NCBI GenBank assembly: GCA_030684645.1
Contig: JAUXUF010000179.1
Span: forward strand, 40,279-104,278
Direction: 5' to 3'
Origin: Bacteroidota bacterium
GTDB taxonomy: Bacteria > Bacteroidota > Bacteroidia > Bacteroidales > Prolixibacteraceae
DNA length: 64,000 nt
Shown: positions 1 to 64,000 of the stretch, in pieces
Numbering within the stretch: position 1 is the stretch's first letter
Layout of the letters: each line of letters opens with the position of its first letter
Position numbers and translations under genes: made by a program
The notes under the pieces: model-generated
Databases searched by the model: none
Seen by the model: only the letters and a program-made list of their open reading frames with translations
What the model was told of the DNA's origin: nothing

Positions 1-339
1 TTCCGTCATGTCGTATGTCGTGCCATCCATCATACACATAAATCTACGCTTGTCATCAGGATAGCGTACTACCGCTAAGTGTGGTTTTCCAACGTGTTCA
101 AGTGTAAACCGATATCCAAAGCGTGACAATGGAACTGCTTCCGCTTCACGATAAGACCCTATAGGAGAAGATACTACCTTTACATCTCCATGTGAAAAAT
201 AAACATCCGCAGGATAATTTTTCGTACAGTCAAAACTTTGAACTAATTTTTGTTTGGGTTCTTGTTCATGTCTGTTGGTACAGCATGAAAATAAGCATGC
301 AAATACCAATAAAAAATTAAGAAAAAAAGGTTTTGCCAT
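1..339 (-). CDS. 5' part of a lipoprotein, putative glycoside-hydrolase-like protein (runs off window start)
   Basis: Not in the ORF track; read manually. ATG at 339 opens a stop-free frame to base 1: MAKPFFLNFLLVFACLFSCCTNRHEQEPKQKLVQSFDCTKNYPADVYFSHGDVKVVSSPIGSYREAEAVPLSRFGYRFTLEHVGKPHLAVVRYPDDKRRFMCMMDGTTYDMTE. Has a lipobox-like LFSC and lies 26 bp downstream of the preceding gene. The GH-like call rests only on context. Confidence 0.7.
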   Translation of the reverse strand, partial: MAKPFFLNFLLVFACLFSCCTNRHEQEPKQKLVQSFDCTKNYPADVYFSHGDVKVVSSPIGSYREAEAVPLSRFGYRFTLEHVGKPHLAVVRYPDDKRRFMCMMDGTTYDMTE

Positions 340-365
340 CTCTCTGCTTTTTATAAAATAAATTC

Positions 366-2459
366 TTACTCGTTTACGATTAATCTAACCTGCCAGGGAC
401 CAACCTCCGGAATGATAAATTTCTGATACGGTCCGTCTGACCCCATCGACCGGATGACGGTTTCCCGGCATGCCATATCGTAGAGTTTAATGGTCTTATT
501 TTCTGTCCGTAACATCAGTATTACGTTTTTAGCGGGATCGAATGAAGAATTGGTGAAAGCCAGGGCTATCTTTCCGTTTTGCGGTTCACGTATCCACAGG
601 TTGATCTTCTGGAAGGAAGCAATATAACCCGACAGTTTATCTTTAGAAAGCCAGCGAAAAACGGCTTTCATTTGCGAACTTTTAGAGAGGTTTTCCATGA
701 AAATCCAGGGATAATATCCTGCCACGCAAATACGCCCACCCAATTTATTTTCAAATATTCCTGACGTACAGGCCGAAACTTCTCTGCCAGTGTAGTCAAC
801 TAAACCGGAAAGCGCCTGAGCTTTTTCGCCGGTTTTCCGGAGTGTAAAGGCAGGTGATTTCCAAAACGATTGCCGGTTATCACGTTTCCTGCCGGCAAAT
901 TGGCCGTTTAGTGGATGGCTGGTGAATTTCTCAATCCGGTCAATTTTTTCTGAACCCACCACTTCGAAGCCGGTTAGGTCGCCAAATCCCATATCGTTCA
1001 ATTGCTGTAATGTTTCGGCATCCATATAAACTCCGCCGGAAAGCAGGGTTTTGATCTCCTCCTTCGAAAGGGCAAAAACATTATCCTTGCCAATGATCGT
1101 AACCTGTGCGTTTTTACCTGAATAACAAGTTGGCAACCCAATGTTGTAAAGATCGTGGCTAACCAGCGGATTTCCTGAACTTAGCCAGTTGCCCTCCGCC
1201 AATTTCCCGGTAATAAAACTGTTTTTATTCCAGAAAGTTTGGATTCCTGAAATTTCAGTACGCCCCAAGGATTTGGCCAGCAGGTCAAAAAATGGTCTGG
1301 ATTCCTGCAACCGGGCCACAAGCGGCTCGTATTCATCAAGTGGCTCATCGTACATGGAAAGCACATTAAAGGCAGCCCCGGTACAGCCTGCCGCAATATG
1401 CGAACAGGCTTCGAGCACTACCATATTGGCTGCTTTTTTCAACCGTTGATAAGGAAAGCATTCAATCTCTGACTGGATGGAAATCACCTCTTCAGGCAAT
1501 ACAGAAACCTGCCTGCCAATATCGTGCGACTTTCCAACCAATTCATTGGTATTGTTGTCGTTATAATAGCCACCTCCTGGTCTCCACATCACCGGGATAT
1601 GGTTGGGGCCGGCAAGTATTTTTGCCCAGTTGTCAAAATCGTAACCTTCATAAAACCGGTCGCCGGTCATAAAACCAAGAGGCATGGCCTGATTAATTCC
1701 GTGCACTGTTTTTTCAATCAGTTCAAAAAGACGGGAAATGGTATTCCGGTTGTGTTGGAGCCATGCTTCCCGAAGTATCAGCTTTTCTTCCACGGGGCTT
1801 TCATCCAGCGCTTTTTTCAGACTTTCACGTGAGTATTTCATGCCTGCTTCTTTCTCAAAAATCTTCAGGCAATTATCGCAAAAACAGCCAAGCCCGATGG
1901 GCATGTGGCCGAAACGGATATCATCATCAATCCAGATATAGTCAGGATTTGCCTGTGCGGTTAATTGATAAATATTCCGGATATATTCCCGCATATTTTC
2001 ATCATTCGGGCAAAAAGAACCATGACATACCTCCCCGTCAATGTTGGTCATGAAGGTATAATTGCCTTTCAGCGAGTTGTCCAGATTTTCATTGTGATGG
2101 CCAATGGTAGTCAAAATGTTGATCCCGGTTTTGAACCCCCTTTTCCGGGCCTGTTCCATACGTTCCTTTAAAATTACGGTCCGCTGCCTGATAACATCAG
2201 GAGGAAGCGGGGCATGTGTTTCCGAAGTAAAAAAAGTGATCTCGTCAGTGACGCTTTTGTACTTGTCAAACAAATCGAAAAGCTCATTACAGCGAGTTTC
2301 AGACATCCAAATCGGAACTCCGATCCGGAAAGAAATGAAGGCCTTCTCAACTTTTGTATTCTTTGAACCGGATGGTTTTGCAGATCCTCCTTGTTTGTTG
2401 GCCACCTGATTGCAACCAAACAGCATGAATACTGAAATAATGACAATAATTTTGTTCAT
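366..2459 (-). CDS. Unassigned lipoprotein with GH42-like architecture (TIM barrel, CxCxxC, trimerisation-like domain)
   Basis: 697 aa ORF with lipobox LFGC. Motifs DYIWIDDDIR, GCFCDNCL (resembles the GH42 Zn-cysteine cluster) and IQSEIE, plus a middle domain ending LLSGGVYMD like GH42 domain B. Confidence 0.55.
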   Translation of the reverse strand: MNKIIVIISVFMLFGCNQVANKQGGSAKPSGSKNTKVEKAFISFRIGVPIWMSETRCNELFDLFDKYKSVTDEITFFTSETHAPLPPDVIRQRTVILKERMEQARKRGFKTGINILTTIGHHNENLDNSLKGNYTFMTNIDGEVCHGSFCPNDENMREYIRNIYQLTAQANPDYIWIDDDIRFGHMPIGLGCFCDNCLKIFEKEAGMKYSRESLKKALDESPVEEKLILREAWLQHNRNTISRLFELIEKTVHGINQAMPLGFMTGDRFYEGYDFDNWAKILAGPNHIPVMWRPGGGYYNDNNTNELVGKSHDIGRQVSVLPEEVISIQSEIECFPYQRLKKAANMVVLEACSHIAAGCTGAAFNVLSMYDEPLDEYEPLVARLQESRPFFDLLAKSLGRTEISGIQTFWNKNSFITGKLAEGNWLSSGNPLVSHDLYNIGLPTCYSGKNAQVTIIGKDNVFALSKEEIKTLLSGGVYMDAETLQQLNDMGFGDLTGFEVVGSEKIDRIEKFTSHPLNGQFAGRKRDNRQSFWKSPAFTLRKTGEKAQALSGLVDYTGREVSACTSGIFENKLGGRICVAGYYPWIFMENLSKSSQMKAVFRWLSKDKLSGYIASFQKINLWIREPQNGKIALAFTNSSFDPAKNVILMLRTENKTIKLYDMACRETVIRSMGSDGPYQKFIIPEVGPWQVRLIVNE

Positions 2460-2622: not shown

Positions 2623-5600
2623 TTACTTTTCAGTATTATAAACATCAAATTGACTTATACCTGCATTTCTTGATTTCACCCTTAATTTATCTGTAAGTAT
2701 TTTGTCGAAAGGTTTTGCCCAGATTTTACCATAAGTCATTTCATTATATAAGGTAATCCATTTACCTGAGCTATCTATGTATTGAATTTCAAAAGGATAA
2801 CCTTTCCCTCTGGTTGCAACAGGTAATGTAAAATGAATTTCAGCTCTGCTGATTGATTGCTGCTTTGGAAAGGTTAGTTGCAAGTAATTATTGGTTGAAT
2901 CGGCTGGTTGTGCTTTCCACTCCGTTTTATCGTCACTGTCTGTTGCATTTTTTGCCGGAAAACCCGGTTGTTCACTTGAGGCTGATGCTGTTGCCGTTTT
3001 GCTTAATGAGTTTTCAAAACTCTGTTTCTCTACGATGGGCAATATTTCTCCACTCATTTCTAATTTTACAATAACATCTGCACTATTTTTCGGATAGTCT
3101 TCACATGTTACTTTTATTCGTTGGGTATCGCTATTTACTTTTATTTTTCCATCGGTCAATACCTCTGTTTTTAAAATTGAAAGCGGTATTGGTGGCAGTG
3201 TTATTTCTTTTGTTTCAGGATTGGTTATGTGCAGATAAATGGTGTTGTCTTTGAACACACTAACTCCCCAATCTCCCGCTTTGAACGGCCCGGCTTTTGT
3301 ATCGTATAAACTTTCCCCGTAGTTCGATAGCCATTCCCCGCTAATTTTCTGTTTTTCAATATTTTCGGGGACTATTATACCATCAAGTAAAGGGTCAACT
3401 CCATACAGGTAGCTGTAATCTGTTCCGGCTACCCTAACTATTGTTTGAATACGGTGTTCTAAAGTAGCAAGATTGACAATATCTGCTTTGCGGCTTTCAG
3501 GTGTGACTTTTAACGAAGCAATCTTCCCATCTTTATAGCTACATGTTATTACCGTATTATAAGGGGCGTAAAGTTTAAAATCAACATTCCAATCTTCCGG
3601 AAAACCAGGCAGCAGATATATTTTCCTGTCATCATATTGTATCAACATGGATTGTAATGCATTTATGGTAACACCTCCATGGCATTGGTCGGGTGTCCAA
3701 TCAAAATGTGCATTCCAAAATGCGGGGAAGCGTTTGGGCACAAATCCCTCCAAAGATTCGGATGCTTGAAAGGAATCAGCATAGGGTGCCCTGTCATGAA
3801 AATTTATGCCCAGCAAAAAGGCGGTTTCCTTTGGCAATCCTAAGTATGCGCTAACAGAAGGCATCTGCGACCATCCTCCTGTCCTGACCCATTGCCTATC
3901 GTTAACCCCATCGAGACTGATCATACGTAAAGCAAAAGAAAGCCTTGCAGCATCGAGCATATTATTTTTATAATGGGTAATCTGACGAAATGGAAATACG
4001 GAATAAAATTCAGGGGACTCTACTATTTCACGTCCTACATACCTATCGCCTACGGCTATCAGTGTTTGGCCATGTACTGTTCGCGTAGAAACTTCTGGAA
4101 GTTCTTTTAAGAAGGAACTCCACTTTTGGTAACGGATTTCGCCTATCCTATTTTTATCTATGCTTATTAACCTCCCAAGCAAATATTTTAGACCAGTCAA
4201 CTCAGTTACTGAGTTAATTACCCCCTGATAGGTTTCTACCGCTCCGGTCGGGCCTATTATACGCTTTCCATTAACATCCTTTTTTGGAAACTGAAGATTA
4301 AAAAATTCGATGTAAGCATCGGCACAAGGAAGTAAGGTATCTGCAAGAAATTTTTCATTCGGATTAAAAATGTAATAATCTGTAAGCATTGCCGTTAACT
4401 CGATGCCCGCAAGAAAGTGGGATGATAAATGTGGTGGTAATCTTATACCAAAAACAGAAAGCCCTTTTAAATTTACAGCTTCAACCTGTACGGCCGCATC
4501 ATCGTATCCAAACCAGTTTTTTGCTCTTGCTTTGGCAACATCAAAAGAGCTATTTATATAACTTTTCAATGGTTTCATCAGTTGAAAATCACCACTTGTT
4601 GCCATTGGGTAATATGGATGGCGGGTATTTTGCCACATAAAAGTAAGGTCTCCCCATGCCCGGTAATCGGCATCAACGGAAGCCTTCAATTTCCCTAAAA
4701 AATTCCATGTCCCTTTTGGTGCATCTACGTTATAAATATTGCCATTGAAGGGAACAGGAGTTTCTCCACGATTTGTGCAGCCATTTATATATCGCTGACA
4801 TATATATTTTTGAGTAAACATAAAGGCGTCAGGAAATCCAGTTAGGTATATCCAACTTCTTTTCCAAAAATCACCCCACCATTTCTTGTGTGCAGTAAAT
4901 GCCCTTTCGTTGTTTATTTTTGCGTATTCTTTTGTTTTTGATTCCAGTAGATTTACCCATTCTGAAGGCTTTTCACACTGTTTGGTTAATAAGGTAATTG
5001 CTATATCTATTTTTTTTATAGCGGTTGCTTTTAATGATTGTGCTCCGCTTCTTTTAAAACCTTTCCCTTGCATCAATGAACCAAAAGTAAGAAATTGTAA
5101 CGGGTCCTTTACTTTTTCTTTTATGCCGGAACCTAAACCTTCACTCTCCAATCTTTGACTCCATTGTGTTTCCGATGAATTTTGATGGTACCATATTACG
5201 CTATCAGACTTATTGTTTATTACTACATCTCCGTATAATGCTTCCTGAGATGTTGGTGATTCCGCAATTTTAAGTTTTCTCCATAATTCATATTGAACTT
5301 CTACTGTGCGTATAATATCGCTTGTTCCCTGTAAATGAATTACAGGATTATTTGCATCCATCCACAAACGCATATTTAGGGCCTTACCATTCTCCCCTGC
5401 TTTTATGGTTATCGCTCCTTCTTTCAATTCCAGTGTTTGATTAAACGGTAAACCCTTGACAAATGGATTATCGCTGAATTTCACCCTGACTTTCCCTTGT
5501 TTTATATTAAATTGGTCATCCCCAAAAAAATCAGTACCGCTGATATAAAACTGTAAATCTCCATTTGGTTCTACCCATATATTTACACCTTCAGAGCCAT

Positions 5601-5757
5601 TACCCAGTGGCATTGCGCCATAAGAATTATCACTTGGAGTATTCCATACTACATTGTATTTGGAAATATCTTGTGTACTTTGTGAGAACAGAGATATATT
5701 GGAAGAAATTACAATAACAGTAAAGAACATCTTCAATCTTTTCAATACTTGCTCCAT
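2623..5757 (-). CDS. DUF5703-type GH95-like (alpha/alpha)6 glycosidase fused to a GH29-type C-terminal domain and an F5/8C (CBM32-like) module
   Basis: 1044 aa with signal peptide. N-terminal YNVVWNTPS..AMPLGNG and C-terminal LQSMLIQY..IYLLPGFPEDWNVDFKL are GH95-like. These are followed by GEWLSNYGESLYDTKAGPF..WGVSVFKDNTIYLHI (GH29 C-terminal signature) and ATASASSEQPGFPAKNATDSDDKTEW (F5/8C). Confidence 0.7.
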   Translation of the reverse strand: MEQVLKRLKMFFTVIVISSNISLFSQSTQDISKYNVVWNTPSDNSYGAMPLGNGSEGVNIWVEPNGDLQFYISGTDFFGDDQFNIKQGKVRVKFSDNPFVKGLPFNQTLELKEGAITIKAGENGKALNMRLWMDANNPVIHLQGTSDIIRTVEVQYELWRKLKIAESPTSQEALYGDVVINNKSDSVIWYHQNSSETQWSQRLESEGLGSGIKEKVKDPLQFLTFGSLMQGKGFKRSGAQSLKATAIKKIDIAITLLTKQCEKPSEWVNLLESKTKEYAKINNERAFTAHKKWWGDFWKRSWIYLTGFPDAFMFTQKYICQRYINGCTNRGETPVPFNGNIYNVDAPKGTWNFLGKLKASVDADYRAWGDLTFMWQNTRHPYYPMATSGDFQLMKPLKSYINSSFDVAKARAKNWFGYDDAAVQVEAVNLKGLSVFGIRLPPHLSSHFLAGIELTAMLTDYYIFNPNEKFLADTLLPCADAYIEFFNLQFPKKDVNGKRIIGPTGAVETYQGVINSVTELTGLKYLLGRLISIDKNRIGEIRYQKWSSFLKELPEVSTRTVHGQTLIAVGDRYVGREIVESPEFYSVFPFRQITHYKNNMLDAARLSFALRMISLDGVNDRQWVRTGGWSQMPSVSAYLGLPKETAFLLGINFHDRAPYADSFQASESLEGFVPKRFPAFWNAHFDWTPDQCHGGVTINALQSMLIQYDDRKIYLLPGFPEDWNVDFKLYAPYNTVITCSYKDGKIASLKVTPESRKADIVNLATLEHRIQTIVRVAGTDYSYLYGVDPLLDGIIVPENIEKQKISGEWLSNYGESLYDTKAGPFKAGDWGVSVFKDNTIYLHITNPETKEITLPPIPLSILKTEVLTDGKIKVNSDTQRIKVTCEDYPKNSADVIVKLEMSGEILPIVEKQSFENSLSKTATASASSEQPGFPAKNATDSDDKTEWKAQPADSTNNYLQLTFPKQQSISRAEIHFTLPVATRGKGYPFEIQYIDSSGKWITLYNEMTYGKIWAKPFDKILTDKLRVKSRNAGISQFDVYNTEK

Positions 5758-5834: not shown

Positions 5835-7145
5835 TTACTCAAGAATAATAATGGTATCAAGGTCATCCCAACGGTCTGATGATTTGAGTGTCAGATATAC
5901 AGCAGAGTCTGTTTGCTGCAAATCAATAGTATGATTGCTGGAGAATAAACGGGCCGAATTAAAACGACGTTTATCTGCCGGTACAGGAAGTTCCAATCTT
6001 TGCCCTTTAGGCGGCAAGAAAACATGCAGGTAAGTTTTTCTGCCATCAGGTGATTCTGTCGCTACATATTGCGTCCCTGATAATGGTTGACCTTCTTTTG
6101 TGATATATGCCCTTCCAGGACGCGTTCCGAAAAGTGACTCACCGGCTTTATCAACGAAACTGCCTAATTCCTTACAGAAAGAGCGGACGCCAGGTTCCCA
6201 TCTGCCACCGGGATGAGGGCCAAAAGACCAGCAGGTTCCTCCTCCAATCCTATTGCTTACTGTCGCCTGAAGTATCGTATACCGGTAAGCCAATTCAGGA
6301 TTAAATGTAACCGTATTTACTTTTGCCCACCATTCTCCGGTAAGCCTTTGACATCTTACCCAGCTTGTTGCCGGAAAGGGGGGGAGCATATTATCTTCTT
6401 TGGCTGAAAAGTCAGCACATAAAGGATTAAAACCGCTGTTTTGAATTATCCATGATTCCGGATTACGGTCGATTATAGTCTTTCGCAGCCGTGCTGCATC
6501 GACTTGTTCTGGAAGGCCCCCATCAATAAAATAACCGGAAACATCTTTTCCATACCTTTTTCCCAATTCTCCCAAAAACTCATTAATAAAATCGTTCCAT
6601 CGGGTAAATGGAGCGCCATCATTCCACCCTACGCGTTCCTGGTCTTCTTTGGTAAAATCATGTCCGTCACTTGGATGAACATAGAGCAATAAGCGAATAT
6701 TTTTTGCTTTCAATGCCTTTATCATATCCTTAATAACATCGCGTTTTGAACAGTGACCCGGTAATTGACGTTTCATTACCTCGCTGGGGAAAAGCACGTT
6801 CATATTGGCATGAAAAGTAGTAAATACAACGTATTGCGCCCGCATGGATGCCGCCAAAGCAGCTAAATCATTTACATCAAGGTTATCGGCCAACTCATCA
6901 AGGCTTTTTACTTTTGAGGTATCTGCCCACAATGTTGAACCCCATTGATATGGCTTACCAACATACGTATAATGTACGAAAAGTCCCAGTTGCATTTTCT
7001 GAAAAGCGATTCTCTTTGCAGATGCAGCATCATTCCCTGATATTTCTGCATTAGCAGTTACATTTTGTGCCTGTAATTTATTACTGCTTATTACAACAAG
7101 TAATAGAACATAAACAATGTATTCTAATTTATTAAAATTTTTCAT
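5835..7145 (-). CDS. Divergent GH29 alpha-L-fucosidase-family protein
   Basis: 436 aa with signal peptide. Motifs FQKMQLGLFVHY, AQYVVFTTFHANM, RDVIKDMIKALKAKNIRLLLY, nucleophile region YFIDGG and GESLFGTRPG. Confidence 0.75.
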   Translation of the reverse strand: MKNFNKLEYIVYVLLLVVISSNKLQAQNVTANAEISGNDAASAKRIAFQKMQLGLFVHYTYVGKPYQWGSTLWADTSKVKSLDELADNLDVNDLAALAASMRAQYVVFTTFHANMNVLFPSEVMKRQLPGHCSKRDVIKDMIKALKAKNIRLLLYVHPSDGHDFTKEDQERVGWNDGAPFTRWNDFINEFLGELGKRYGKDVSGYFIDGGLPEQVDAARLRKTIIDRNPESWIIQNSGFNPLCADFSAKEDNMLPPFPATSWVRCQRLTGEWWAKVNTVTFNPELAYRYTILQATVSNRIGGGTCWSFGPHPGGRWEPGVRSFCKELGSFVDKAGESLFGTRPGRAYITKEGQPLSGTQYVATESPDGRKTYLHVFLPPKGQRLELPVPADKRRFNSARLFSSNHTIDLQQTDSAVYLTLKSSDRWDDLDTIIILE

Positions 7146-15757: not shown

Positions 15758-15789
15758 TAATTTCGGAAAAAATATTCACTTTATCTTGA

Positions 15790-21694: not shown

Positions 21695-21942
21695 GTGTTT
21701 ATAATTTGTTTTTTAAAGGTCGAATGGAACTCGCATATGAAATTTTCCTCCATGGTGTTTTTGAGATACTCACTTACAGTAGTTTTGTAGTCCCACTCGT
21801 ACTCCGAATCCAAATGAGTGTAGCTTACGGTGTATAGCACCCTGTTTTTTGAAATGTCGTATTTGGCCCGCCTGTCAACTGGTTGCGAAAACGACAGCAA
21901 GGGCAGTAACACGAATAAAAACAGAAAGAATTTTTCTCTCAT
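21691..21942 (-). pseudogene. Truncated GH38 alpha-mannosidase (N-terminal fragment only)
   Basis: 83 aa: a signal peptide, then LYTVSYTHLDSEYEWDYKTTVSEYLKNTMEENF, matching the GH38 start motif (HxDxxWxW..T). Homology stops there and the frame ends in a GTGA overlap with the esterase start. Full-length GH38 proteins are many hundreds of residues longer. Confidence 0.75.
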
Positions 21943-22035
21943 GAATTATGATTTAGTTTTCTCAGATTTCAATCCCGCATGCAGCAAGACTTTCACTTTG
22001 ATGATTTTAGCAATTTACAGTTAATGTATTCCACA

Positions 22036-22054
22036 TGTCAATCAATAATTGACA
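22036..22054. promoter_or_regulatory. Perfect 7-bp inverted repeat, possible operator
   Basis: TGTCAAT-caata-ATTGACA, located between the conserved 44-bp motif and the GH38 start. Confidence 0.3.
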
Positions 22055-41913: not shown

Positions 41914-41980
41914 TTTATCAAATTAGTTAGTTAATATTCAATACAGTAACAACTATTGAAAATAAACTACAACAAATATT

Positions 41981-46083: not shown

Positions 46084-46233
46084 CGCGGGTTTGAGCATAA
46101 ACCTGTGTAAAAGTGCCGGATAATACAGAACTAAAAAGAAGCAGGAAAAGGAATCTGGAAGTTCTCATTATGGAATATTTTATTCGTTAGCGTCATTTTA
46201 TCGTTGGACAATCTTCAAAAATACGATAGACAT

Positions 46234-46277
46234 TTGCTAAATACTTCTGTAATATTGGTTAAAGCACATTAAAAATT
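46234..46277 (-). promoter_or_regulatory. Conserved 44-bp intergenic motif, copy B
   Basis: Minus strand aatttttaatgtgctttaaccaatattacagaagtatttagcaa; 36/44 identical to 22078..22121. It lies just downstream of a terminator and upstream of 46055. Confidence 0.6.
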
Positions 46278-46320
46278 GATATTTGACTATGGAGATTCGA
46301 CTATTCAGTCCGGACTAATT

Positions 46321-54772: not shown

Positions 54773-54775
54773 TGA

Positions 54776-55798: not shown

Positions 55799-55814
55799 AA
55801 TACTTCTCTAAAAA

Positions 55815-57167: not shown

Positions 57168-59545
57168 TTCTTTGTTTTTACACTCAGTTCATTCAATTCA
57201 AAATTCAGTAACGAATAAGGGTACATTACATTATGTGCCTTCTCTGCGACCATTTCTTCAGGTAAAGTAAATGAAGCTTTGAGCCGGATATCTTTCGATG
57301 ATGCACCCATGCGAACTTCATAAATCCCTTTATCGGCTACCCAAGCACTGATTCCACTCCAGAAGGAAGCCAGGGAACGTGCATCGAGTTCAAAAGTCAG
57401 ATTCTGGCTTTCTCCCGGTTGCAGCAGCTTTGTTTTGGCAAATCCTTTCAATTCCTGAACCGGTTTTTCAATTTCAGTATTTGGGGCTGCCAGGTATAGT
57501 TGAACCACCTCTTTCCCTGGTACCTTTCCAGTATTTTTCACAATTACGTTTACTTTCATCTTACCGGTGAAGGTAGGGCTACTCAACTTTAAATCAGAGT
57601 ACTCAAAGGTTGTATAGGAAAGTCCATAACCAAATTCGAAGGCAACAGGCACTTTAAATGAGTCGTAGTAACGATAGCCCACGTAAATTCCTTCGTTGTA
57701 TAACACAGGATTAATATTTGCTTTTTGAGATTCAGGTTCGATTGTAAAGTTTGGGGCAGAGGGCACGTCTTCATACTTAATCGGGAATGACACCGGCAAT
57801 TTTCCTGAAGGATTTACAGAACCTTTCAGCACATCGGCTACTGCATTGCCACCCTGTTCACCTGTTTGCCAGGCAAGCAGAATGGCATCCGGAAGGTCTC
57901 TCCAGCTGGCAGTTTCAAAAGCGCCACCAACATTTAGGATTACCACAACCTTTTTCCCGGCAGCATGATAAACCTCGCACACGTCCCGTACTAAATTTTG
58001 TTCCACATCATCCAGTGGAATATAACCATTGTCGTGTCCTTCGCCACCAGAGCGGCCTATCATAATAACAGCAATATCGGATTCTGCAACCTGCTTTGCA
58101 ATGTCAGCTTTTGATATTTTCAGTTCAGGATGAAATGGAATTATCCGTCGTTTAAAATAGTCTGTTACCTTGCTGCTATTGGAAAATATGGTGTCTACAA
58201 AATTTGAATAGGTATCATCGAGGTATTTTACAACCTGAAATCCTGCATTTTTTATCCCCTCATTCAGCGTTACCGAGTGAATTGGTTTCGACTCGCCACT
58301 GCCCGATCCGCTGGCCACAAAAAAATACGAACCTTTACTGAAAAGTGCAACTGTTTTCACATTGGCACTGAATGGCAGTGTCGTATTGCTATTCTTAAGC
58401 AAAACCATCGCCTCACTGGCAGATTCTCTGGCGAGTGCAACGTGGGTAACCTTATCGAATTTTAAAGATGGCTTGTAGCCTTTGGAGCGAGGTGTTTTCA
58501 TCTTGAATTTCAAAACGTATTCTACACTCTTATCGATCTCTTTTTCATCCAGCGTTTTGTCTTTCAGGGCTGCTTTAATCTCATCAATTTCAGCCTTGCT
58601 ACCACTCATCAGGAGGTTGCTTCCGGCCCTAACTTTTGCCACCGCACTGCCCAGACCATCCCAGTCGGTCATGAATAGTCCGTCGAAACCCCACTCCTGA
58701 CGCGTAACGATTTTTAGCAATTCAGGATTTTCAGCCGTATAGAATCCGTTAAACTTATTGTAGGAAGTCATGATTGACCATGGATGGCCTTCCTTCACCG
58801 CAATTTCAAAACCGCGCAGGTAAATTTCCCGTAAGGCCCGCTGACTGATAATTGCATTATAACTCCTTCGGTTGGTTTCCTGATTGTTGGCTGCAAAGTG
58901 CTTGATGGAAGTTCCTACACCTTGCGATTGCACGCCACGGACATAAGCTGCCGCCATTTTTCCGGACAACAGCGGATCTTCCGAAAAGTACTCGAAGTTA
59001 CGGCCACACATCGGATTGCGCTGTATATTCAGTCCCGGTTCCAGCATAATATCCACGTTAGATTCTTTCACTTCGTTGCCAATGGCCTCACCCACTTTTT
59101 CGATCAGGTCAGTATTCCAGGTTGCTGCCAAGGATGTTTCACTTGGAAAAGCGGTATAGCGAACTTCCTGAGTCGAATCTTTAGGATTGGTGCCGGCAAT
59201 GGTTATACCGCCCATTACAGTTGATTTTATACCCAACCGGGGAATGCCCCACACGCAACCATCCACCGTCGGGGTAAAAAGTGATGCACTTTTCGGAAAT
59301 GTATTATCCTCGATACTGATTCCAGATTTTGGGTCGTAAACAGGTATTCCGGGAGGTGGTGTTTTTCCATCTCCAACTCCGACGATGAGCGCTATCTTTT
59401 CGTCTATAGTCAGTGCCGCAATAACATCTTCCAGCTTGTCTTTGCCCAATTGCGGATTACTGCTTTTTGGGGCAACGCATGATTGCAGGCCGAGTTGAAG
59501 CACAATCAGAAGTGAGATAAACCTAATCGAAATTTGAATCTTCAT
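57164..59545 (-). CDS. GH3 beta-glucosidase-type lipoprotein (tandem copy 1)
   Basis: 793 aa with lipobox LQSC. Motifs RNPMCGRNFEYFSEDP, KHFAANNQE, nucleophile FMTDW, SGGEGHD and YNEGIYVGYRYYD. Confidence 0.95.
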   Translation of the reverse strand: MKIQISIRFISLLIVLQLGLQSCVAPKSSNPQLGKDKLEDVIAALTIDEKIALIVGVGDGKTPPPGIPVYDPKSGISIEDNTFPKSASLFTPTVDGCVWGIPRLGIKSTVMGGITIAGTNPKDSTQEVRYTAFPSETSLAATWNTDLIEKVGEAIGNEVKESNVDIMLEPGLNIQRNPMCGRNFEYFSEDPLLSGKMAAAYVRGVQSQGVGTSIKHFAANNQETNRRSYNAIISQRALREIYLRGFEIAVKEGHPWSIMTSYNKFNGFYTAENPELLKIVTRQEWGFDGLFMTDWDGLGSAVAKVRAGSNLLMSGSKAEIDEIKAALKDKTLDEKEIDKSVEYVLKFKMKTPRSKGYKPSLKFDKVTHVALARESASEAMVLLKNSNTTLPFSANVKTVALFSKGSYFFVASGSGSGESKPIHSVTLNEGIKNAGFQVVKYLDDTYSNFVDTIFSNSSKVTDYFKRRIIPFHPELKISKADIAKQVAESDIAVIMIGRSGGEGHDNGYIPLDDVEQNLVRDVCEVYHAAGKKVVVILNVGGAFETASWRDLPDAILLAWQTGEQGGNAVADVLKGSVNPSGKLPVSFPIKYEDVPSAPNFTIEPESQKANINPVLYNEGIYVGYRYYDSFKVPVAFEFGYGLSYTTFEYSDLKLSSPTFTGKMKVNVIVKNTGKVPGKEVVQLYLAAPNTEIEKPVQELKGFAKTKLLQPGESQNLTFELDARSLASFWSGISAWVADKGIYEVRMGASSKDIRLKASFTLPEEMVAEKAHNVMYPYSLLNFELNELSVKTKK

Positions 59546-59554
59546 ATCTTTATA

Positions 59555-61933
59555 TTATTTGCTATTCCGGCTCAACTCCTTCATAGCAAAATTGGGGAAC
59601 AAGGCATCATGCACTTTTTCGACCACTACATCTTTTCTCAAATTAAAAGAAGCTTTTAGGCGGATATCTTTCGATGACGCGCCAATGCGAACCTCGTAAT
59701 CGCCCTGATCGGCCACCCACGAGCTGATGCCACTCCGGAATGAAGCCAGCGAGCGGGCATCCAGTTCAAAAGTCAATTGCTGGGTTTCATCCGGTTGCAA
59801 CAGCTTTGTTTTTACAAATCCCTTTAATTCCTGATCAGGTTTCTCAACTTCCGAAGTTGGAGCCGAAAGATAGAGTTGGACTACCTCTTTGCCCGGAACT
59901 TTTCCGGTATTTTTCACTGTAATTTTCACCTCCATTTTATCGGCAAAAGTTGAGCTACTCAACTTCAGATCAGAGTATTCAAAGGTTGTGTACGACATAC
60001 CATAGCCAAACTCGTAGGCTGTTGGAACCTTAAAAGTATCGTAATAGCGGTACCCAACATAGATACCTTCTTTGTAAAACGAATTGACCGGATTGTCAGC
60101 AGGCTCTCCGGGGAAAGTTGTTGCAGAAGGTACGTCCTCGTATTTTATTGGGAATGAGTCTGGCAGCTTACCAGATGGATTAACTGCACCTTTTAGAATA
60201 TCGGCAACGGCATAGCCGCCTTCCTGTCCGGGCTGCCACGCGAGCAGAATGGCATCGGGATAGTTGCGCCAGGAGGCTGTTTCGCAAACACCTCCTACAT
60301 TGAGCACCACCACGACCTTTTTCCCGGCAGCATGGTATGCATCGCACACATTTCGCACCAGCTCGATTTCTGTTTCAGAACTTGGGAAATAGCCGTTTTC
60401 ATAACCTTCGCCACCACTTCGGCCCAGAGTAATAACGGCAATATCGGTATTCGGTATTTGTTTTTCAATTTGTTGCCTGGTCATCGCCATTTCCTCATGA
60501 AACGGGATCAGCCTTTTTTTGAAGTGAGGTGGAGCTTTACCATCTTTAACACCATTAGCAGCCAGCATGACGGGATTATTGAAAAAATCAGGAACCAGAT
60601 TTTTTTCCATGATATCCGCATTGAAGGCCGTGAAAGCATCCTCCATTTCTTTCAATACCTGAAAACCTGCGGCTTTGAGCCCCTGGTTTATGGAAACAGC
60701 ATACTTATTACTCCGGATGCCCCCGCTACCAGTGCCTGACTCAATCAAATAGTAGCCAATTTTACCAAACAAGGCGACTGTTTTCACGTCATGAAAAGGA
60801 AGAGCATTATTCTCATTTTTAAGAAGCACCATGCCCTCAGTTGCTGCCTCTCTGGCAATTGACGCATGAGCTTCCAGTTCCGGTTTCATGGTTGGGACAT
60901 GGCCATTCATGCGAGGTGAGTTTAGCTTGAGCTGCAGGTTATAAACCAGATTTTTAGCGAGCATACTCTCATCCAGCGTTTTGTCTTTAAGCGCTGCCGT
61001 CAGTTCGTTAACCTCATCCATGTTTCCTCCCATCAGCATGTTGTTACCAGCCCTGACTTTGGCCACGGCACTTCCGTAACCGTCAAAATCAGTCATGAAA
61101 ACTCCGTTAAATCCCCATTCCTGACGGACAATGTCCTGAAGCAATTCAGGATTTTCAGCGGTATAGAAGCCATTTAACTTGTTGTAAGAAGTCATGATTG
61201 CAGCGGGTTTACCTTCTTTCACGGCAATTTCAAAACCACGCAGGTAAATTTCGCGCAAAGCCCTTTGGCTAACCACAGCATTGTAGGTCCTACGGTTTGT
61301 TTCCTGATTATTCGCCAGAAAATGTTTTAAAGTGGCGCCAACTCCATTGGATTGGAGGCCAATGACAATGGACGCAGCCATTTTTCCGGAGAGTAAGGGA
61401 TCTTCGGAATAATACTCAAAGTTGCGTCCGCACTTCGGATTGCGATGAATGTTTAATGCCGGCATCAGTACCACATCGTTGTCGTATTCCAGCAACTCAT
61501 TTCCAAAGGCCTTTCCTACTTTAGCCAGCATTTCGATGTTCCAGGTGGCTGCAAGACAGCTCGAAGTAGGAAATGCTGTAGAATAATAATACTCAGTACT
61601 TCCGGCCGGATGAGGATCCCTGTTCACTCCGGAAGGGCCATCGGTTAGTGATGAATTCATAACAGAAAGACGTGGAATAACCATTTTTGAATTTTGGTTG
61701 GCAATAATGATTCCGGTGCCTTGCTCAATGGTTTTTGAATTGGTTGCAGGCAAAAATTTCCCATCGCCAACGGTCATGCCAATTTTTTCTTCCGGAGTCA
61801 TGGCTGCAATTACATCTTCCAACTTAGCTTTACCCAGCTGTGGCTCTGTACTTTTACCGGTACTGCAAGCCTGAATGGCCAACACAATCACAACCAGGAG
61901 TGTAAAAATCAATGTCGAAATTTTTTGTTTCAT
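59555..61933 (-). CDS. GH3 beta-glucosidase-type lipoprotein (tandem copy 2)
   Basis: 792 aa with lipobox IQAC. Motifs LTDGPSG, RNPKCGRNFEYYSEDP, KHFLANNQE, FMTDF and SGGEGYE. Confidence 0.95.
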   Translation of the reverse strand: MKQKISTLIFTLLVVIVLAIQACSTGKSTEPQLGKAKLEDVIAAMTPEEKIGMTVGDGKFLPATNSKTIEQGTGIIIANQNSKMVIPRLSVMNSSLTDGPSGVNRDPHPAGSTEYYYSTAFPTSSCLAATWNIEMLAKVGKAFGNELLEYDNDVVLMPALNIHRNPKCGRNFEYYSEDPLLSGKMAASIVIGLQSNGVGATLKHFLANNQETNRRTYNAVVSQRALREIYLRGFEIAVKEGKPAAIMTSYNKLNGFYTAENPELLQDIVRQEWGFNGVFMTDFDGYGSAVAKVRAGNNMLMGGNMDEVNELTAALKDKTLDESMLAKNLVYNLQLKLNSPRMNGHVPTMKPELEAHASIAREAATEGMVLLKNENNALPFHDVKTVALFGKIGYYLIESGTGSGGIRSNKYAVSINQGLKAAGFQVLKEMEDAFTAFNADIMEKNLVPDFFNNPVMLAANGVKDGKAPPHFKKRLIPFHEEMAMTRQQIEKQIPNTDIAVITLGRSGGEGYENGYFPSSETEIELVRNVCDAYHAAGKKVVVVLNVGGVCETASWRNYPDAILLAWQPGQEGGYAVADILKGAVNPSGKLPDSFPIKYEDVPSATTFPGEPADNPVNSFYKEGIYVGYRYYDTFKVPTAYEFGYGMSYTTFEYSDLKLSSSTFADKMEVKITVKNTGKVPGKEVVQLYLSAPTSEVEKPDQELKGFVKTKLLQPDETQQLTFELDARSLASFRSGISSWVADQGDYEVRIGASSKDIRLKASFNLRKDVVVEKVHDALFPNFAMKELSRNSK

Positions 61934-61938
61934 TTTGT

Positions 61939-64000
61939 CTATTTTTTAGTTTGATTTAGTTCGTCTAATGGAAAGTCAGGATACAGCACGTTATGTGCTT
62001 TTTCAACAATAATTTCTTCAGGCAGGCTGAATGACCCTTTGAGGCGAATGTCTCTGGATGAAGCACCAATACGCACCTCATAACTGCCTTTATCTGCTAC
62101 CCATGCGCTGATACCGCTCCAGAAGGATGCCAGTAAACGGGCATCCAGTTCAAAAGATATGAGCTGGCTTTCGCCCGGCTGAAGCAGCTTTGTTTTGGCG
62201 TATCCTTTGAGTTCCTGAATTGGTTTCTCAATCTCTGTATTTGGGGCTGACAGATAAAGTTGCACCACCTCTTTTCCCGGAAGCTTCCCGGAGTTTTTGA
62301 CAGTTACATTTACCGTCATTTTTCCTGAAAATGATGGGCTACTCAATTTCAAATCCGAGTATTCAAAGGAGGTATAGGAAAGGCCAAAGCCAAACTCATA
62401 GGCATCAGGTACCCTGAAGGTATCGTAATACCGGTAACCCACGTAAATTCCTTCGTTGTACAATTGCGGCAATGTGCTGATGTGAACCTTTCGATGACCA
62501 AGGAAAGCATATCCCTCATATTTTCCATCGGTATAAAGCGTCGGAACTGTATCTTCAGGAATCCCGTTGGCTAAATATCCATTATCGGTAATTATTACCT
62601 TGTTGGGAAATGTTTTGGAGGATGGCACATCAGCGTATTTTACAGGTACAGTGGTGGGCAGTTTTCCTGAAGGATTCACATCTCCTTTTAAAACGTCAAC
62701 CAGCGCATTGCCTGCTTCCTGACCCAGCTGCCAGGCCATAAGGATCGCATCAGGGTAATTGCGCCAGCTGGCCATTTCAATGACTCCCGGTACATTCAGT
62801 ATAACCACCACTTTTTTCCCGGCAGCGTGATATGCCTCTGAAACATTTCGAATTAGTGCCTGTTCGGTCTCCGACAGGTTGAAAAAATCATCCTCACGCC
62901 TGTCCCATCCTTCGCCTGAATTACGGCCAATGGTGATGATCGCCAGATCGGAACTGGATACTTGTTCTGAAATAATTGACCTAGGAAGGACTAACTCGGG
63001 ACAATAGGAAATCATGTATTTTTGCCACTTCCACCAGGTCAGTTTTTTAGATTCTTCAGCCCTGACTTTGGTAAGTTGATTCGTGTACCAATCTGCCAAA
63101 GGTTTATTCACCAGGTAATACCTTTTCGTCAGTGCTTCATCAAGTGAAACAACATATTCGTTATTCACCAGGGCACTGCCTGCTCCTCCAACAATGAAAT
63201 CGTAGGATGTTTTGCCAAAAAGAGCCACTTTTTTTACTCCGCCAAAAGGCAAAGCATTGCTGTTTTTTAGAAGGACGATGGCCTCAGTAGCTGCCTCATG
63301 GGCTGTTGCAGCGTTTTCCTTCAGGTTTGGCTGGTACGATGGTTTGTATTGTTTAAATCGAGGGGTTTTCTGAATCAGGGTAAGCACCCGTGCCAGATTT
63401 TTATCCAGCACTTTCCCGTCCAATTTTTTATTTTTTAAACCGGCAAGCAGTTGATTCTGTTCGATGGATTCACCGGGCATCAGAAGATCACTTCCGGCGG
63501 AAACCTTAGCCACGGCATCGGCTCCACAGGTCCAGTCTGTTAAAACTACGCCTTCAAAGCCCCATTCCTTTCTCAGGATAGAATCAAGCAAATCAGGATT
63601 TTCGCAGGTATAGCGACCATTGAGCCGGTTGTACGATACCATGACTGTCCACGGTTTTGACTCTTTTACGGTAATTTCAAATCCTCTGAGATATATTTCG
63701 CGTAAGGCACGCTGGCTTATCACTGAATTTTGAGTCTTCCGGTTGGTTTCCTGATTATTGGCCAGAAAATGTTTGATCGAAGTACCAACTCCCATCGACT
63801 GAACTCCTCGGACCAGAGCTGCCGCTGTTTTTCCGGAAAGCAGCGGGTCTTCTGAACAATACTCAAAATTGCGGCCGCACAAGGGATTTCGCTGGATGTT
63901 CTGTCCCGGACCCAGAAGAATATCAGAGTTGTATTCCAGCGACTCATTTCCCATGCCTTTGCCGACTTTCTCAATCAGTTCATCATTCCAGGTAGCTGCC
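61939..64000 (-). CDS. GH3 beta-glucosidase-type enzyme (tandem copy 3), 5' end beyond the window
   Basis: The frame stays open upstream of the listed Met at 63954 (..AATWNDELIEKVGKGMGNE..) to the window edge. Motifs RNFEYCSEDP, VLTDW and NSGEGWDR. Confidence 0.93.
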   Translation of the reverse strand, partial: AATWNDELIEKVGKGMGNESLEYNSDILLGPGQNIQRNPLCGRNFEYCSEDPLLSGKTAAALVRGVQSMGVGTSIKHFLANNQETNRKTQNSVISQRALREIYLRGFEITVKESKPWTVMVSYNRLNGRYTCENPDLLDSILRKEWGFEGVVLTDWTCGADAVAKVSAGSDLLMPGESIEQNQLLAGLKNKKLDGKVLDKNLARVLTLIQKTPRFKQYKPSYQPNLKENAATAHEAATEAIVLLKNSNALPFGGVKKVALFGKTSYDFIVGGAGSALVNNEYVVSLDEALTKRYYLVNKPLADWYTNQLTKVRAEESKKLTWWKWQKYMISYCPELVLPRSIISEQVSSSDLAIITIGRNSGEGWDRREDDFFNLSETEQALIRNVSEAYHAAGKKVVVILNVPGVIEMASWRNYPDAILMAWQLGQEAGNALVDVLKGDVNPSGKLPTTVPVKYADVPSSKTFPNKVIITDNGYLANGIPEDTVPTLYTDGKYEGYAFLGHRKVHISTLPQLYNEGIYVGYRYYDTFRVPDAYEFGFGLSYTSFEYSDLKLSSPSFSGKMTVNVTVKNSGKLPGKEVVQLYLSAPNTEIEKPIQELKGYAKTKLLQPGESQLISFELDARLLASFWSGISAWVADKGSYEVRIGASSRDIRLKGSFSLPEEIIVEKAHNVLYPDFPLDELNQTKK

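Follow-up and report, generated by a model that had tools for sequence, protein, structure and literature searches.

A SusC/SusD-less CAZyme array in a groundwater Prolixibacteraceae genome, read as a probable composite of at least three glycan-trimming gene blocks

Introduction

In Bacteroides thetaiotaomicron, the polysaccharide utilisation loci (PULs) for RG-II bring together enzymes of the GH78, GH106, GH95, GH141, GH28 and GH29 types with acetylesterases. Verrucomicrobiota and Planctomycetota follow another pattern, with SusC/D-independent CAZyme islands that combine exported exo-glycosidases for glycans rich in fucose and rhamnose with inner-membrane permeases; to our knowledge, these phyla have no Sus paradigm at all. 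For the Bacteroidota themselves, CAZyme clusters without susC/D are already catalogued in PULDB (Lapebie et al.), and such loci have been seen mostly as variants or fragments of PULs (PMC6499787).

Here we analyse a stretch of 64,000 nucleotides (the window) from a groundwater member of the Prolixibacteraceae (Bacteroidota), represented by a 99%-complete MAG in 408 contigs. We favour, with a probability of about 0.6, the reading that the window represents the central part of a composite island made of at least three glycan-trimming blocks and not one polysaccharide utilisation locus.

Results

Extent and gene content of the array

The window belongs to a same-strand array of 48 genes and 96.7 kb (C381:15948-112662), all of it on the 141-kb contig C381. 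The genes run from C381:15969 to 112411, so the cluster passes both window edges, as a preliminary description had supposed. That description had also placed every credible gene on the minus strand and had counted about 25 CAZyme or CAZyme-like genes. Both statements agree with the ORF listing, in which 31 of 31 long ORFs are on the minus strand and about 21 recognisable CAZymes are accompanied by 3-5 CAZyme-like orphans; the five plus-strand ORFs of at least 150 aa are each nested in a minus-strand gene.

The window genes encode glycosidases and esterases for export, together with MFS sugar permeases and a small number of accessory enzymes. Pfam assigns them to GH106, GH78, GH28, a divergent GH29, GH32 (two), GH92 (two), GH3 (four) and SASA-type esterases (two), and there are three GH95-related proteins (one of the DUF5703 family), a GH141-related beta-helix protein, a DUF6259 protein and a Fib_succ_major protein. 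Outside the CAZymes we found two Sugar_tr MFS permeases, a GFO/IDH/MocA oxidoreductase, a URO-D-like and an MBL-like protein. Most families named in the preliminary description are thus present, with the exception of its sialidase-like member, whose BNR_2 match (26 bits) lies below Pfam cut-offs, as does a GH43-like match of 25 bits; its single GH92, single GH32 and single GH3 were undercounts. It was right that several members are uncharacterised, since for five proteins neither PDB nor NCBIfam gave a match and Pfam none that is significant.

The whole array holds more than 30 GH/CE genes and three MFS permeases, with five alpha-mannosidases (four GH92, one GH38), a glucosaminidase-like GH2 and GDPDs among its products. 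Signal peptides of the SPI or lipoprotein type are present on almost all array enzymes, and the locus has the co-localised CAZyme genes with export signals that are expected of a canonical PUL.

The array occupies a site that is empty in close relatives

In all six congeners examined, the spt-like gene and the 303-aa gene that flank the array lie only about 190 bp apart, which identifies the 96.7-kb array as an insertion between two genes that stand side by side in close relatives. The 105-nt flank spacer of these congeners maps to C381:15840-15947 and so fixes the breakpoints at C381:15947/15948 and 112662/112663. The usual hallmarks of mobility are missing: no tRNA was found on C381, the scanned ORFs contain no integrase or transposase domains, and composition is near that of the host (GC 42.8% against 41.2 ± 2.0%; tetranucleotide distance within 1 SD).

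Genes between positions 366 and 21694

Coordinates of features in this and the next section are those of the window, and all features lie on the minus strand. The gene at 366..2459 encodes a 697-aa orphan with a lipoprotein signal peptide, for which Pfam, PDB and NCBIfam gave no match. It is part of a block that is conserved beyond the genus, and its orthologues in the Prolixibacteraceae genomes G172, G214 and G220 (78-84% identity) adjoin GH95-like and GH36-like genes. Next to it lies a 1044-aa DUF5703-family protein (2623..5757; DUF5703_N 3e-67) that is distantly related to GH95 and carries a GH29-type C-terminal domain (residues 766-905 match GH29 C-terminal regions) and an F5/8 type C module. 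It matches PDB 9HMB and 9HYQ, both named "DUF5703 domain-containing protein", at 7e-77. A divergent GH29 alpha-L-fucosidase-like protein with a signal peptide (5835..7145; Alpha_L_fucos 4.8e-18, 66 bits) and a GH106 alpha-L-rhamnosidase (7172..9703; Glyco_hydro_106 1.3e-121) follow.

The 994-aa orphan exported protein (9712..12696) has a weak C-terminal xylose-isomerase-like TIM barrel; its only Pfam signal is a sub-threshold AP_endonuc_2 match, and PDB and NCBIfam gave none. Orthologues occur in 12 of 201 family genomes (58-73% identity, one farther at 33%), with none in other genomes of the genus, and the one in G214 sits within an operon headed by FecR-SusC-SusD. The adjacent MFS sugar porter (12715..14049; Sugar_tr 2e-109), a predicted inner-membrane importer, has an 83% identical orthologue that adjoins a GH32 pair in G214.

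Two GH32-fold paralogues of 547 and 527 aa (14114..17373) have both the N- and the C-terminal Pfam domain above threshold, which places them in the family by fold. Alignment with PDB 7VCO shows that the nucleophile Asp is kept, but RDP is changed to ADP or WDP and the Glu of EC to Met or Ser (MC/SC), with an ED pair upstream, so that the canonical catalytic set (the Asp of WMNDPNG, RDP and the EC acid/base) is incomplete in both. The preliminary description had spoken of remodelled active-site motifs. The differences are real in this pair, but they are not a local remodelling, as orthologues from another genus, 74-79% identical, show these variants too. Because they are conserved across genera, and the genes checked show dN/dS of about 0.05-0.11, they are best regarded as stable traits of uncharacterised subfamilies. 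A GH78 alpha-L-rhamnosidase (17375..20230; five Bac_rhamnosid domains, 2.8e-126) and a SASA-type carbohydrate acetylesterase (20297..21694; SASA 6e-20) complete this part.

Genes between positions 21739 and 64000

Fragmentary ORFs at 21739..22715 are gene relics. They comprise a GH38 5' fragment with its promoter region, 82% identical in nucleotide sequence to C381:29449-29848, and a GH92 5' fragment (22658-22715), 81% identical to the GH92 5' end. Beyond them lie a GH28-type beta-helix glycosidase (22980..24500; Glyco_hydro_28 2e-18), a 780-aa DUF6259 protein (24619..26961; DUF6259 3e-81), which has no PDB or NCBIfam match and is probably an uncharacterised glycosidase, and a secreted protein with a Fib_succ_major domain (27033..27710; PF09603 1.2e-47).

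The tandem pair at 27791..33332 encodes GH95/GH65-related (alpha/alpha)6 proteins of 917 and 894 aa (Glyco_hydro_95_cat 1e-19 to 1e-20) that share 73% amino-acid identity, with dN/dS 0.11 and dS 1.7; the family has members of 65-78% identity in 29 of 201 Prolixibacteraceae genomes. We considered GH95 membership for these two and the 1044-aa protein and rejected it, as the profile is matched only in part (67-286 of 408). Scores are 69-74 bits for the tandem pair and 23.6 bits for the 1044-aa protein, and matches to GH95 structures in the PDB are no better than 2e-13. By these comparisons, the pair represents a conserved family of its own and the 1044-aa protein a member of the DUF5703 family.

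A GH43-like 328-aa protein (sub-threshold match) and a 391-aa orphan (33343..35597) have orthologues (63-85% and 72-79% identity, respectively) that adjoin GH95-like genes in G220, G172 and G214. They are followed by a 649-aa SASA-type esterase with a beta-galactosidase-like binding domain and a 397-aa BNR_2-like protein (35682..38897), and by two GH92 alpha-mannosidases (38920..44923; Glyco_hydro_92 6e-154 and 2e-186) with Fn3_assoc/CHB_HEX_C and PA14 modules and orthologues of 67-70% identity in G214 and G215. The GFO/IDH/MocA oxidoreductase (45060..46055), assigned by Pfam and devoid of a signal peptide, heads a transcription unit, has a hairpin downstream of its gene and is 81% identical to its orthologue in G214.

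The 987-aa parallel beta-helix protein at 46442..49405 (Beta_helix and Big_7 domains) is related to GH141, matching PDB 9RX2 at 2e-28 and the GH141 enzyme BT_1002 at 1.8e-9, and has a 69% identical orthologue in G214. It is neighboured by a 440-aa orphan exported protein (49471..50793) without a Pfam, PDB or NCBIfam match, by a GH3 enzyme with an inserted PA14 domain (50873..53599; Pfam; orthologues of 70-71% identity in G214 and G215) and by an exported MBL-fold protein (53615..54772; weak Pfam match). MBL-fold orthologues occur in 29 of 201 family genomes and come directly after GH3 in G214 and G215. A URO-D-like protein and an MFS sugar porter (54776..57167; URO-D 4e-67, Sugar_tr 6e-103) are absent from between GH3 and MBL in those two genomes, and the pair is a 2.4-kb insert in the GH3-MBL run; of 24 congeners searched, two have a URO-D orthologue (64-67% identity). 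The window closes with three tandem GH3 lipoprotein paralogues (57164..64000), the third ending beyond it at C381:104706, which are 53-59% identical to each other at the amino-acid level (dN/dS 0.08) and 74-77% identical to orthologues in G214 and G215.

The array lacks SusC/SusD and linked regulator genes

Pfam searches of all ORFs of at least 150 aa detected no TonB-dependent receptor, SusD, HTCS, ECF sigma, anti-sigma or LacI protein in the array, so this claim of the preliminary description holds for the window and for the full array. Annotation of the flanks, which had been suggested as a check, revealed no susC/susD pair or regulator just outside, and the rest of the 141-kb contig is equally free of SusC, SusD, HTCS, ECF/anti-sigma and LacI genes. 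All 31 SusD matches and all 55 TonB-receptor Plug matches of the genome fall on contigs other than C381, and tblastn with 22 of its own SusC/SusD proteins against C381 gave zero matches. Because the genome is a MAG of 408 contigs, cognate SusC/D genes may lie on an unassembled or unbinned piece. A sigma-54 regulator, a histidine kinase and a small AraC protein encoded beyond the downstream end are backbone genes that island-free congeners also have, and the ROK protein of the array starts at its ATP-binding motif and has no N-terminal HTH. The locus thus has neither the adjacent susC/susD pair nor the linked HTCS, SusR or ECF/anti-sigma genes of a canonical Sus-like PUL and is a SusC/D-less CAZyme gene cluster in the PULDB/dbCAN sense.

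Blocks of the array occur as separate loci in relatives

Gene order in other Prolixibacteraceae indicates a mosaic structure of the array, with at least three blocks. Separate block loci are seen in G214, G172 and G215; in G214, the matching blocks are on two contigs, or about 1.1 Mb apart on one contig. Block A (GH2-ROK-MFS-DegT ... GH3s-MBL-GH3(PA14)-GH141-like-MocA-GH92s) is syntenic in G214 and G215 at 70-91% amino-acid identity, likewise without SusC/D, and no SusC/D gene lies within 80 kb of the block A arrays in these two genomes. Block B consists of GH32-GH32-MFS-994aa; in G214, the MFS gene and the 994-aa gene are separated by a FecR-SusC(STN)-SusD cassette. Block C (GH43-like/391aa/GH95-like ... 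697aa/GHL10/GHL6/446aa/GH36-like) is contiguous in G220, G172 and G214, and FecR-SusC-SusD heads it in G172a and G214b, whereas here it is interrupted by other genes over about 25 kb.

The cassettes are missing here from blocks B and C, and our genome contains no orthologues of them (best identity: SusC 38%, SusD 35%, FecR 52%), while the enzymes of the cassette-bearing blocks are 58-92% identical to those of the array. Any direction for this difference, be it cassette loss here or gain elsewhere, is tentative, as it is drawn from a small number of relatives. Between the blocks we found hairpins, longer gaps and gene relics. Predicted activities also differ, with alpha-mannosidases, beta-glucosidase-type GH3 enzymes and a glucosaminidase-like GH2 in one block, and rhamnosidases, fucosidase-like enzymes, GH28 and esterases in others. 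Tandem paralogues and three relics, of GH38, GH92 and MocA genes, attest to turnover. In the genes checked, dN/dS is 0.05-0.11, which shows that they are maintained.

A conserved promoter element marks some of the transcription units

A conserved 77-nt promoter/operator element, a candidate regulatory site, lies at 46204..46279 of the window on the minus strand. It consists of an upstream site, TTAATATTTAATGTGCWTT..CCAAAATA, a TTTG at -33 and a TAnnTTT(G/A) box at -7. The genome contains four copies at E ≤ 1e-15, and the next match is at E 0.23; one copy lies in the GH38 relic (22049-22125, 2.5e-18). The element is also conserved in G215 and G214, where it precedes GH38, GH92 and further operon heads and its spacing is fixed. 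It would serve at least two units of the array, the GH38 operon and the MocA-GH92 operon, and one operon on contig C275.

As two operon heads of the array carry this conserved element, control in trans is implied, and the element-bearing units may answer to a trans-encoded regulator. The earlier finding of no regulator is accordingly correct for genes, but does not extend to control. Gaps, hairpins and promoter copies suggest that the array is transcribed as several units, whose number is uncertain since most of its intergenic gaps lack a strict Bacteroidetes -7 box.

Discussion

With its contiguous GH/CE genes, the lack of a susC/susD pair, a host that also has canonical PULs and parts that match PULs in other genomes, the array resembles the susC/D-less clusters of PULDB. 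It departs from them in its size (48 genes, 96.7 kb), in the concatenation of several blocks at one insertion site, in the absence of FecR-SusC-SusD from two blocks alongside a block A that is SusC/D-less in other examined genomes too, and in having its own conserved promoter element. Purifying selection on its genes argues against a mere prediction artefact. The canonical ECF/FecR/SusC(STN)/SusD PULs of G172 and G214 share with it co-oriented exported enzymes of 58-92% identity in the same order, but the array lacks susC/susD and sigma/anti-sigma genes and the genome has no orthologue of them elsewhere.

Like the RG-II PULs, the array combines GH78, GH106, GH95-, GH141-, GH28- and GH29-type enzymes with acetylesterases. 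In contrast to them, it has no susC/D or HTCS, its GH95-like, GH141-like and GH29 members are no more than distantly related to characterised enzymes, its additional mannosidase, GH3, GH32 and GH2 blocks are foreign to RG-II breakdown, and the RG-II-specific GH137-GH143 were not identified in it. The dense run of exported exo-glycosidases with inner-membrane permeases and no SusC/D recalls the islands of Verrucomicrobiota and Planctomycetota; here, however, the host is a member of the Bacteroidota with 31 SusD proteins, and homologous blocks in sister genera use SusC/D. We conclude that the array represents a type of locus already known, but on an unusually large scale, and that it includes several orphan enzyme families.

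In the composite island that we favour, the blocks would have come together head to tail at one site, the 3' end of the spt-like aminotransferase gene, with blocks B and C corresponding to loci that elsewhere have the FecR-SusC(STN)-SusD cassette missing here. Judged by signal peptides and families, the enzymes would be periplasmic or membrane-tethered exo-glycosidases and esterases. Their predicted targets, assigned from family membership alone with several members divergent or orphan, would be rhamnose (GH78, GH106), fucose-type sugars (GH29, DUF5703, GH95-like), mannose (GH92, GH38), glucose, xylose or GlcNAc (GH3), GlcN (GH2), GalA (GH28), acetyl groups (SASA) and glycerophosphodiesters (GDPD). 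Released sugars would enter the cytoplasm via the MFS permeases encoded in the array and be processed by the ROK kinase, the DegT aminotransferase and the MocA oxidoreductase. Since no outer-membrane importer is encoded here, oligosaccharide substrates would come via SusC/D pairs or porins encoded elsewhere.

The preliminary description had proposed a single decorated, acetylated, deoxy-sugar-rich heteroglycan as the target. One giant PUL-like system for such a glycan, be it RG-II-like, a microbial EPS or algal, would explain the shared orientation, the tight spacing and the presence together of GH78, GH106, GH29, GH95-like, GH141-like, GH28 and acetylesterases, as in the Bacteroides RG-II loci. 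We consider it unlikely, because the array is a patchwork of blocks that stand apart in G214, G172 and G215 and differ in predicted activity; five alpha-mannosidases, four GH3, a GH32-fold pair, GH2 and GDPDs misfit one glycan, relics, hairpins and separate promoters lie between the blocks, and the 77-nt element is found on only some units. It also seems doubtful that the array is the enzymatic part of a canonical Sus-like system with dispersed parts, its dedicated SusC/SusD and sigma/anti-sigma genes being elsewhere. The 31 SusD proteins and 55 plug-domain receptors on other contigs, the trans control shown by the common promoter element, and the C275 operon, which bears the same element and adjoins GH38/GH29 genes in G215, would fit such a split. 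Against it, a 99%-complete MAG holds no orthologue of the relatives' SusC, SusD and FecR, identities of at most 38% for SusC/D are at paralogue level, and the block A arrays of G214 and G215 are themselves without SusC/D within 80 kb.

That the array is a decaying remnant, PUL fragments without transporters and regulators that drift towards pseudogenes and have no current function, would be in line with the three relics, the missing FecR-SusC-SusD cassettes and the published view of most susC/D-less loci as fragmentary PULs (PMC6499787). It is very unlikely in the light of 48 intact long ORFs with signal peptides kept, dN/dS of 0.05-0.11 even in old tandem paralogues with dS >1, and SusC/D-less synteny conserved across genera. 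Hardly credible is a chimera of several organisms' CAZyme loci created by assembly or binning. The MAG does consist of 408 contigs, and among the listed Logan contigs one link, at window 21671-21793, is uncovered, the sequence there being repeated; yet independent Logan contigs (run X1) tile the window and both island junctions with 0-5 differences and an even depth of about 10-13x, a second study (X2) yielded a contig that bridges the downstream breakpoint, and composition is homogeneous. The public runs that hold array sequence are DNA metagenomes only.

A bolder version of the composite-island reading, which we put forward only tentatively, is a distinct SusC/D-independent mode of glycan use in Prolixibacteraceae. 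It would rest on conserved multi-operon arrays of periplasmic exo-glycosidases and MFS importers, with a dedicated promoter/operator and a trans regulator. In this genome, canonical PULs of the ECF/anti-sigma/SusCD type would have been converted to that mode by losing the entire signalling and transport cassette and would then have been concatenated into one island. The bacterium would scavenge oligosaccharides that other members of its community set free, and the island would contain at least five unrecognised glycosidase families. Candidates for such families are the 697-aa, 994-aa, 391-aa and 440-aa orphans, the DUF6259 protein, the variant GH32 and the GH95-like proteins.

Glycan use by Bacteroidota is usually predicted from susC/susD pairs, a rule that would miss these 48 genes, although they are maintained enzyme and permease genes of which many have no paralogue elsewhere in the genome. 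The island gives a number of orphan or variant enzyme families a clear functional setting, and its conserved promoter element offers a handle for finding the regulator. Homologous blocks with and without FecR-SusC-SusD provide a natural comparison for what the cassette contributes and for how a bacterium may live without it, for instance as a scavenger of oligosaccharides in groundwater communities.

Extent and gene content of the array

The window corresponds to C381:40279-104278 in a host genome of 5.2 Mb in 408 contigs. It contains 31 long minus-strand ORFs, and the few plus-strand ORFs of at least 150 aa lie inside minus-strand genes. The single-strand organization claimed in the preliminary description is thus borne out. 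The predicted extension past both window edges also holds, since ORF calling over the whole 141.6-kb contig C381 shows that the same-strand run continues on either side to a total of 48 genes (C381:15969 to 112411).

Pfam searches assigned minus-strand genes of the window to GH106, GH78, GH28, a divergent GH29, two GH32-fold, two GH92, and four GH3 enzymes (one GH3 with PA14), two SASA-type esterases, three GH95-related proteins (one of the DUF5703 family), a DUF6259 protein, and a Fib_succ_major protein, together with two Sugar_tr MFS permeases, a MocA oxidoreductase, a URO-D-like protein, and an MBL-like protein. The same strand encodes a beta-helix protein related to GH141. Two earlier calls, "sialidase-like" and "GH43-like", gave sub-threshold matches only. 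Downstream of the window follow GHL10/GHL6-like genes, a GH36-like gene, GH92, DUF3089, and GH38, and further on DUF4838, a malectin-domain protein, GDPD, and two GH29 genes. Upstream lie the remainder of the third GH3 gene, GDPD, a DegT aminotransferase, and an MFS permease, then a ROK kinase and a glucosaminidase-like GH2.

With few exceptions, the enzymes have an N-terminal signal peptide of the SPI or lipoprotein type; none is present on the MocA oxidoreductase, the URO-D-like protein, or the permeases. Pfam scans revealed no C-terminal sorting domains for type IX secretion, and an Rfam scan of the window for RNA elements gave no match. Five proteins of 697, 994, 780 (DUF6259), 391, and 440 aa are orphans for which PDB and NCBIfam searches returned no relatives. 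The 1044-aa protein is a member of DUF5703, a family with solved structures (9HMB, 9HYQ) on which a literature search yielded nothing.

Judged from relatives of the flanking spt-like gene, the host represents an uncultured genus of Prolixibacteraceae; by this gene, Sunxiuqinia and Gaoshiqia are the nearest named genera (~85% identity). We found the array sequence in groundwater metagenomes only. Logan contigs (assemblies of public sequencing runs) from run X1 are an independent assembly, probably of the same sample. They cross both island junctions and tile the window, with 0-5 differences and a depth of 10-13x. The sole stretch that the listed Logan contigs leave uncovered (window 21671-21793) is within repeated sequence. 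The downstream breakpoint is also crossed by a contig of run X2, from a second study. Coverage in X2-X4 is 2-6x with short contigs, too sparse to show which of the blocks described below are carried by other strains.

The array occupies an insertion site next to an spt-like gene

All six congeners examined carry an empty site, in which the homologue of C381:13867-14775 follows within ~190 bp of the spt-like gene; the backbone genes beyond it, including the sigma-54 regulator and the histidine kinase, are those found downstream of the array. None of 50 relatives has array-gene homologues within 10 kb of spt. A 105-nt spacer common to relatives maps to C381:15840-15947, which places the breakpoints at 15947/15948 and 112662/112663 and gives an insert of 96.7 kb. 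As judged from these flanks, the array is an insertion at the spt-like site. The DUF4382 gene represents a second, small insertion.

We found no tRNA on C381 and no integrase or transposase domains in the scanned ORFs. Recent foreign origin was rejected because GC content and tetranucleotide usage of the array are inside the normal range of the genome and the closest homologues come from within the family. Duplication of the genome's own genes was rejected as well, the best paralogue outside the island being at most 51% identical; about 14 array genes have no paralogue outside C381.

The surroundings of the site are also altered. Between the spt-like and RNase HII genes sits a zinc alcohol dehydrogenase gene (L004:9960-10442, where L004 is a stretch of C381 beyond the window; C381:114105-114638) that is cut to its C-terminal 160-178 aa, compared with 345-410 aa in congeners. 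Upstream of RNase HII, the conserved neighbors are swapped for a class D beta-lactamase-like transpeptidase-fold gene and a POT transporter. The truncated dehydrogenase and the swapped neighbors indicate that several rearrangements are clustered around the insertion site.

The array is composed of blocks found at separate loci in relatives

The URO-D gene did not serve as a synteny anchor, as an orthologue was present in only 2 of 24 congeners searched and the neighborhoods were not syntenic; we therefore used flank- and block-based comparisons. By synteny, the array is a mosaic of at least three blocks. Block A (GH2-ROK-MFS-DegT ... GDPD-GH3s-MBL-GH3(PA14)-GH141-like-MocA-GH92s) has syntenic counterparts in co-oriented arrays (70-91% identity) of G214, which belongs to a different genus, and of G215, a congener with nothing inserted at its own spt site. 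No SusC/D was present by these arrays within the 80 kb examined. Block B (GH32-GH32-MFS-994aa) recurs in G214 at 71-83% identity, where genes for a FecR anti-sigma factor, an STN-domain SusC, and SusD plus four further genes lie between the MFS and 994-aa genes. Block C comprises the 391-aa orphan, GH43-like, GH95-like genes, the 697-aa orphan, GHL10, GHL6, a 446-aa protein, and GH36-like. It is contiguous in three other family genomes (G220, G172, and G214; 58-92% identity) and headed by FecR-SusC-SusD in two of four loci examined. In the array it is interrupted by ~25 kb containing Fib_succ, DUF6259, GH28, relics, SASA, GH78, block B, GH106, GH29, and the DUF5703 protein. The SusC, SusD, and FecR proteins associated with blocks B and C in relatives have no orthologue in the host genome, with best identities of 38, 35, and 52%, respectively.

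G214 has the three blocks distributed over two contigs, or separated by ~1.1 Mb within one contig. Such a mosaic of blocks from separate loci does not support the earlier interpretation of the cluster as a system for one decorated heteroglycan. The gene families of the array are patchy across the family, each occurring in 12-29 of 201 genomes, and the best match often comes from another genus instead of a congener, a hint of intrafamily exchange.

Gene turnover and conserved active-site variants

Tandem paralogues include three GH3 genes and two each of GH95-like, GH92, GH32, and GH29; the GDPD pair represents dispersed paralogues. These two exported GDPD proteins (L002:2787-4922, on another C381 stretch beyond the window, and L004:696-1535) are encoded at opposite island ends, share 60% identity, and are otherwise without paralogues in the genome. 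The pair suggests phosphodiester-substituted substrates among the targets, e.g., phosphomannan or teichoic-acid-like polymers.

The island contains three gene relics. A GH38 5' fragment with its promoter and a GH92 5' fragment lie in a 1.3-kb gap (window 21695-22979), and an 81-aa MocA-like remnant (L004:1642-1884; C381:105841-106083), 75-80% identical to full-length genes of G215 and G214, lies in the 383-bp DegT-GDPD gap. The URO-D-like and MFS pair (window 54776-57167) forms a 2.4-kb insertion between the third GH3 and MBL genes, which are directly adjacent in G214 and G215; URO-D identity to the two congener orthologues is 64-67%. For paralogue and orthologue pairs, dN/dS was 0.05-0.11 with dS >1, indicating that the genes have long been maintained and that the duplications are not recent.

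The preliminary description had also proposed repeatedly remodelled active-site motifs. The sequence variants are real in the GH32 pair (window 14114-17373), which keeps the nucleophile Asp and has ADP or WDP for RDP, a replaced EC Glu, and a retained ED pair two residues upstream. They are not local, as 74-79% identical orthologues from another genus show the same pattern. On this conservation, the variants are stable features of an uncharacterised subfamily, probably with non-fructan or altered specificity. This conclusion covers the GH32 pair. The GH95-like pair represents a family whose members in 29 genomes share 65-78% identity.

Transcription units and a conserved 77-nt element

Judged by its gaps and hairpins, the array would comprise about six to eight transcription units, with strong hairpins after the spt, DegT, GDPD, MocA, and GH38 genes. 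Immediately past the 3' end of the MocA gene is the near-perfect palindrome GTAGAGACGTTGCATGCAAGGTCTCTAC (window 45021-45048), a probable terminator hairpin that would separate MocA from the first GH92 gene.

Searching the intergenic gaps strictly for TAnnTTTG returned two sites only, and more was learned from aligning the motif copies without gaps. A 77-nt element has four genome copies at E <=1e-15 (next match, E 0.23). One precedes the MocA-GH92 operon (window 46204-46279), one is the relic copy (window 22049-22125), one precedes the GH38 operon (C381:29772-29848), and one precedes an operon on another contig (C275:42040-42116). The counterpart of the C275 operon in G215 adjoins a GH38 gene inside the array. 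In G215 and G214 the element recurs, ungapped and with constant spacing, ahead of GH38, GH92, and further operon heads. Its 3' end reads TTTG ... TAnnTTT(G/A), an arrangement resembling the Bacteroidetes -33/-7 promoter, and is preceded by a conserved site, TTAATATTTAATGTGCWTT..CCAAAATA. We read the element as a promoter plus a putative binding site of a regulator encoded elsewhere, which would mark a small regulon.

Absence of SusC/SusD and a linked regulator

In agreement with the preliminary description, we found no TonB-dependent receptor, SusD, HTCS, ECF sigma, anti-sigma, or LacI domain, and no susC/susD on C381 beyond the window. All 31 SusD proteins and 55 plug-domain receptors of this Bacteroidota genome are encoded on contigs other than C381. 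The ROK protein was rejected as a hidden regulator: it is a kinase of 307 aa that starts at the ATP-binding motif, without an N-terminal DNA-binding domain. The sigma-54 regulator and histidine kinase near the array are conserved backbone genes common to congeners. The locus thus lacks two defining features of Sus-type PULs, the susC/D pair and a linked regulator, but works like their periplasmic half.

The observation in the preliminary description is confirmed, and the kind of locus is already known. PULDB lists 2,533 susC/D-less CAZyme loci, judged to be mostly fragmentary PULs (PMC6499787). The array fits this category but is large by comparison and differs in its concatenated origin at one insertion site, in the lack of the signalling and transport cassette from two blocks, in a SusC/D-less block that is conserved across genera, and in having its own promoter element. 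Most likely, the array encodes periplasmic exo-glycosidase batteries coupled to MFS import, which would receive oligosaccharides through outer-membrane transporters whose genes lie elsewhere; several units, controlled in trans, would drive the expression of the batteries.
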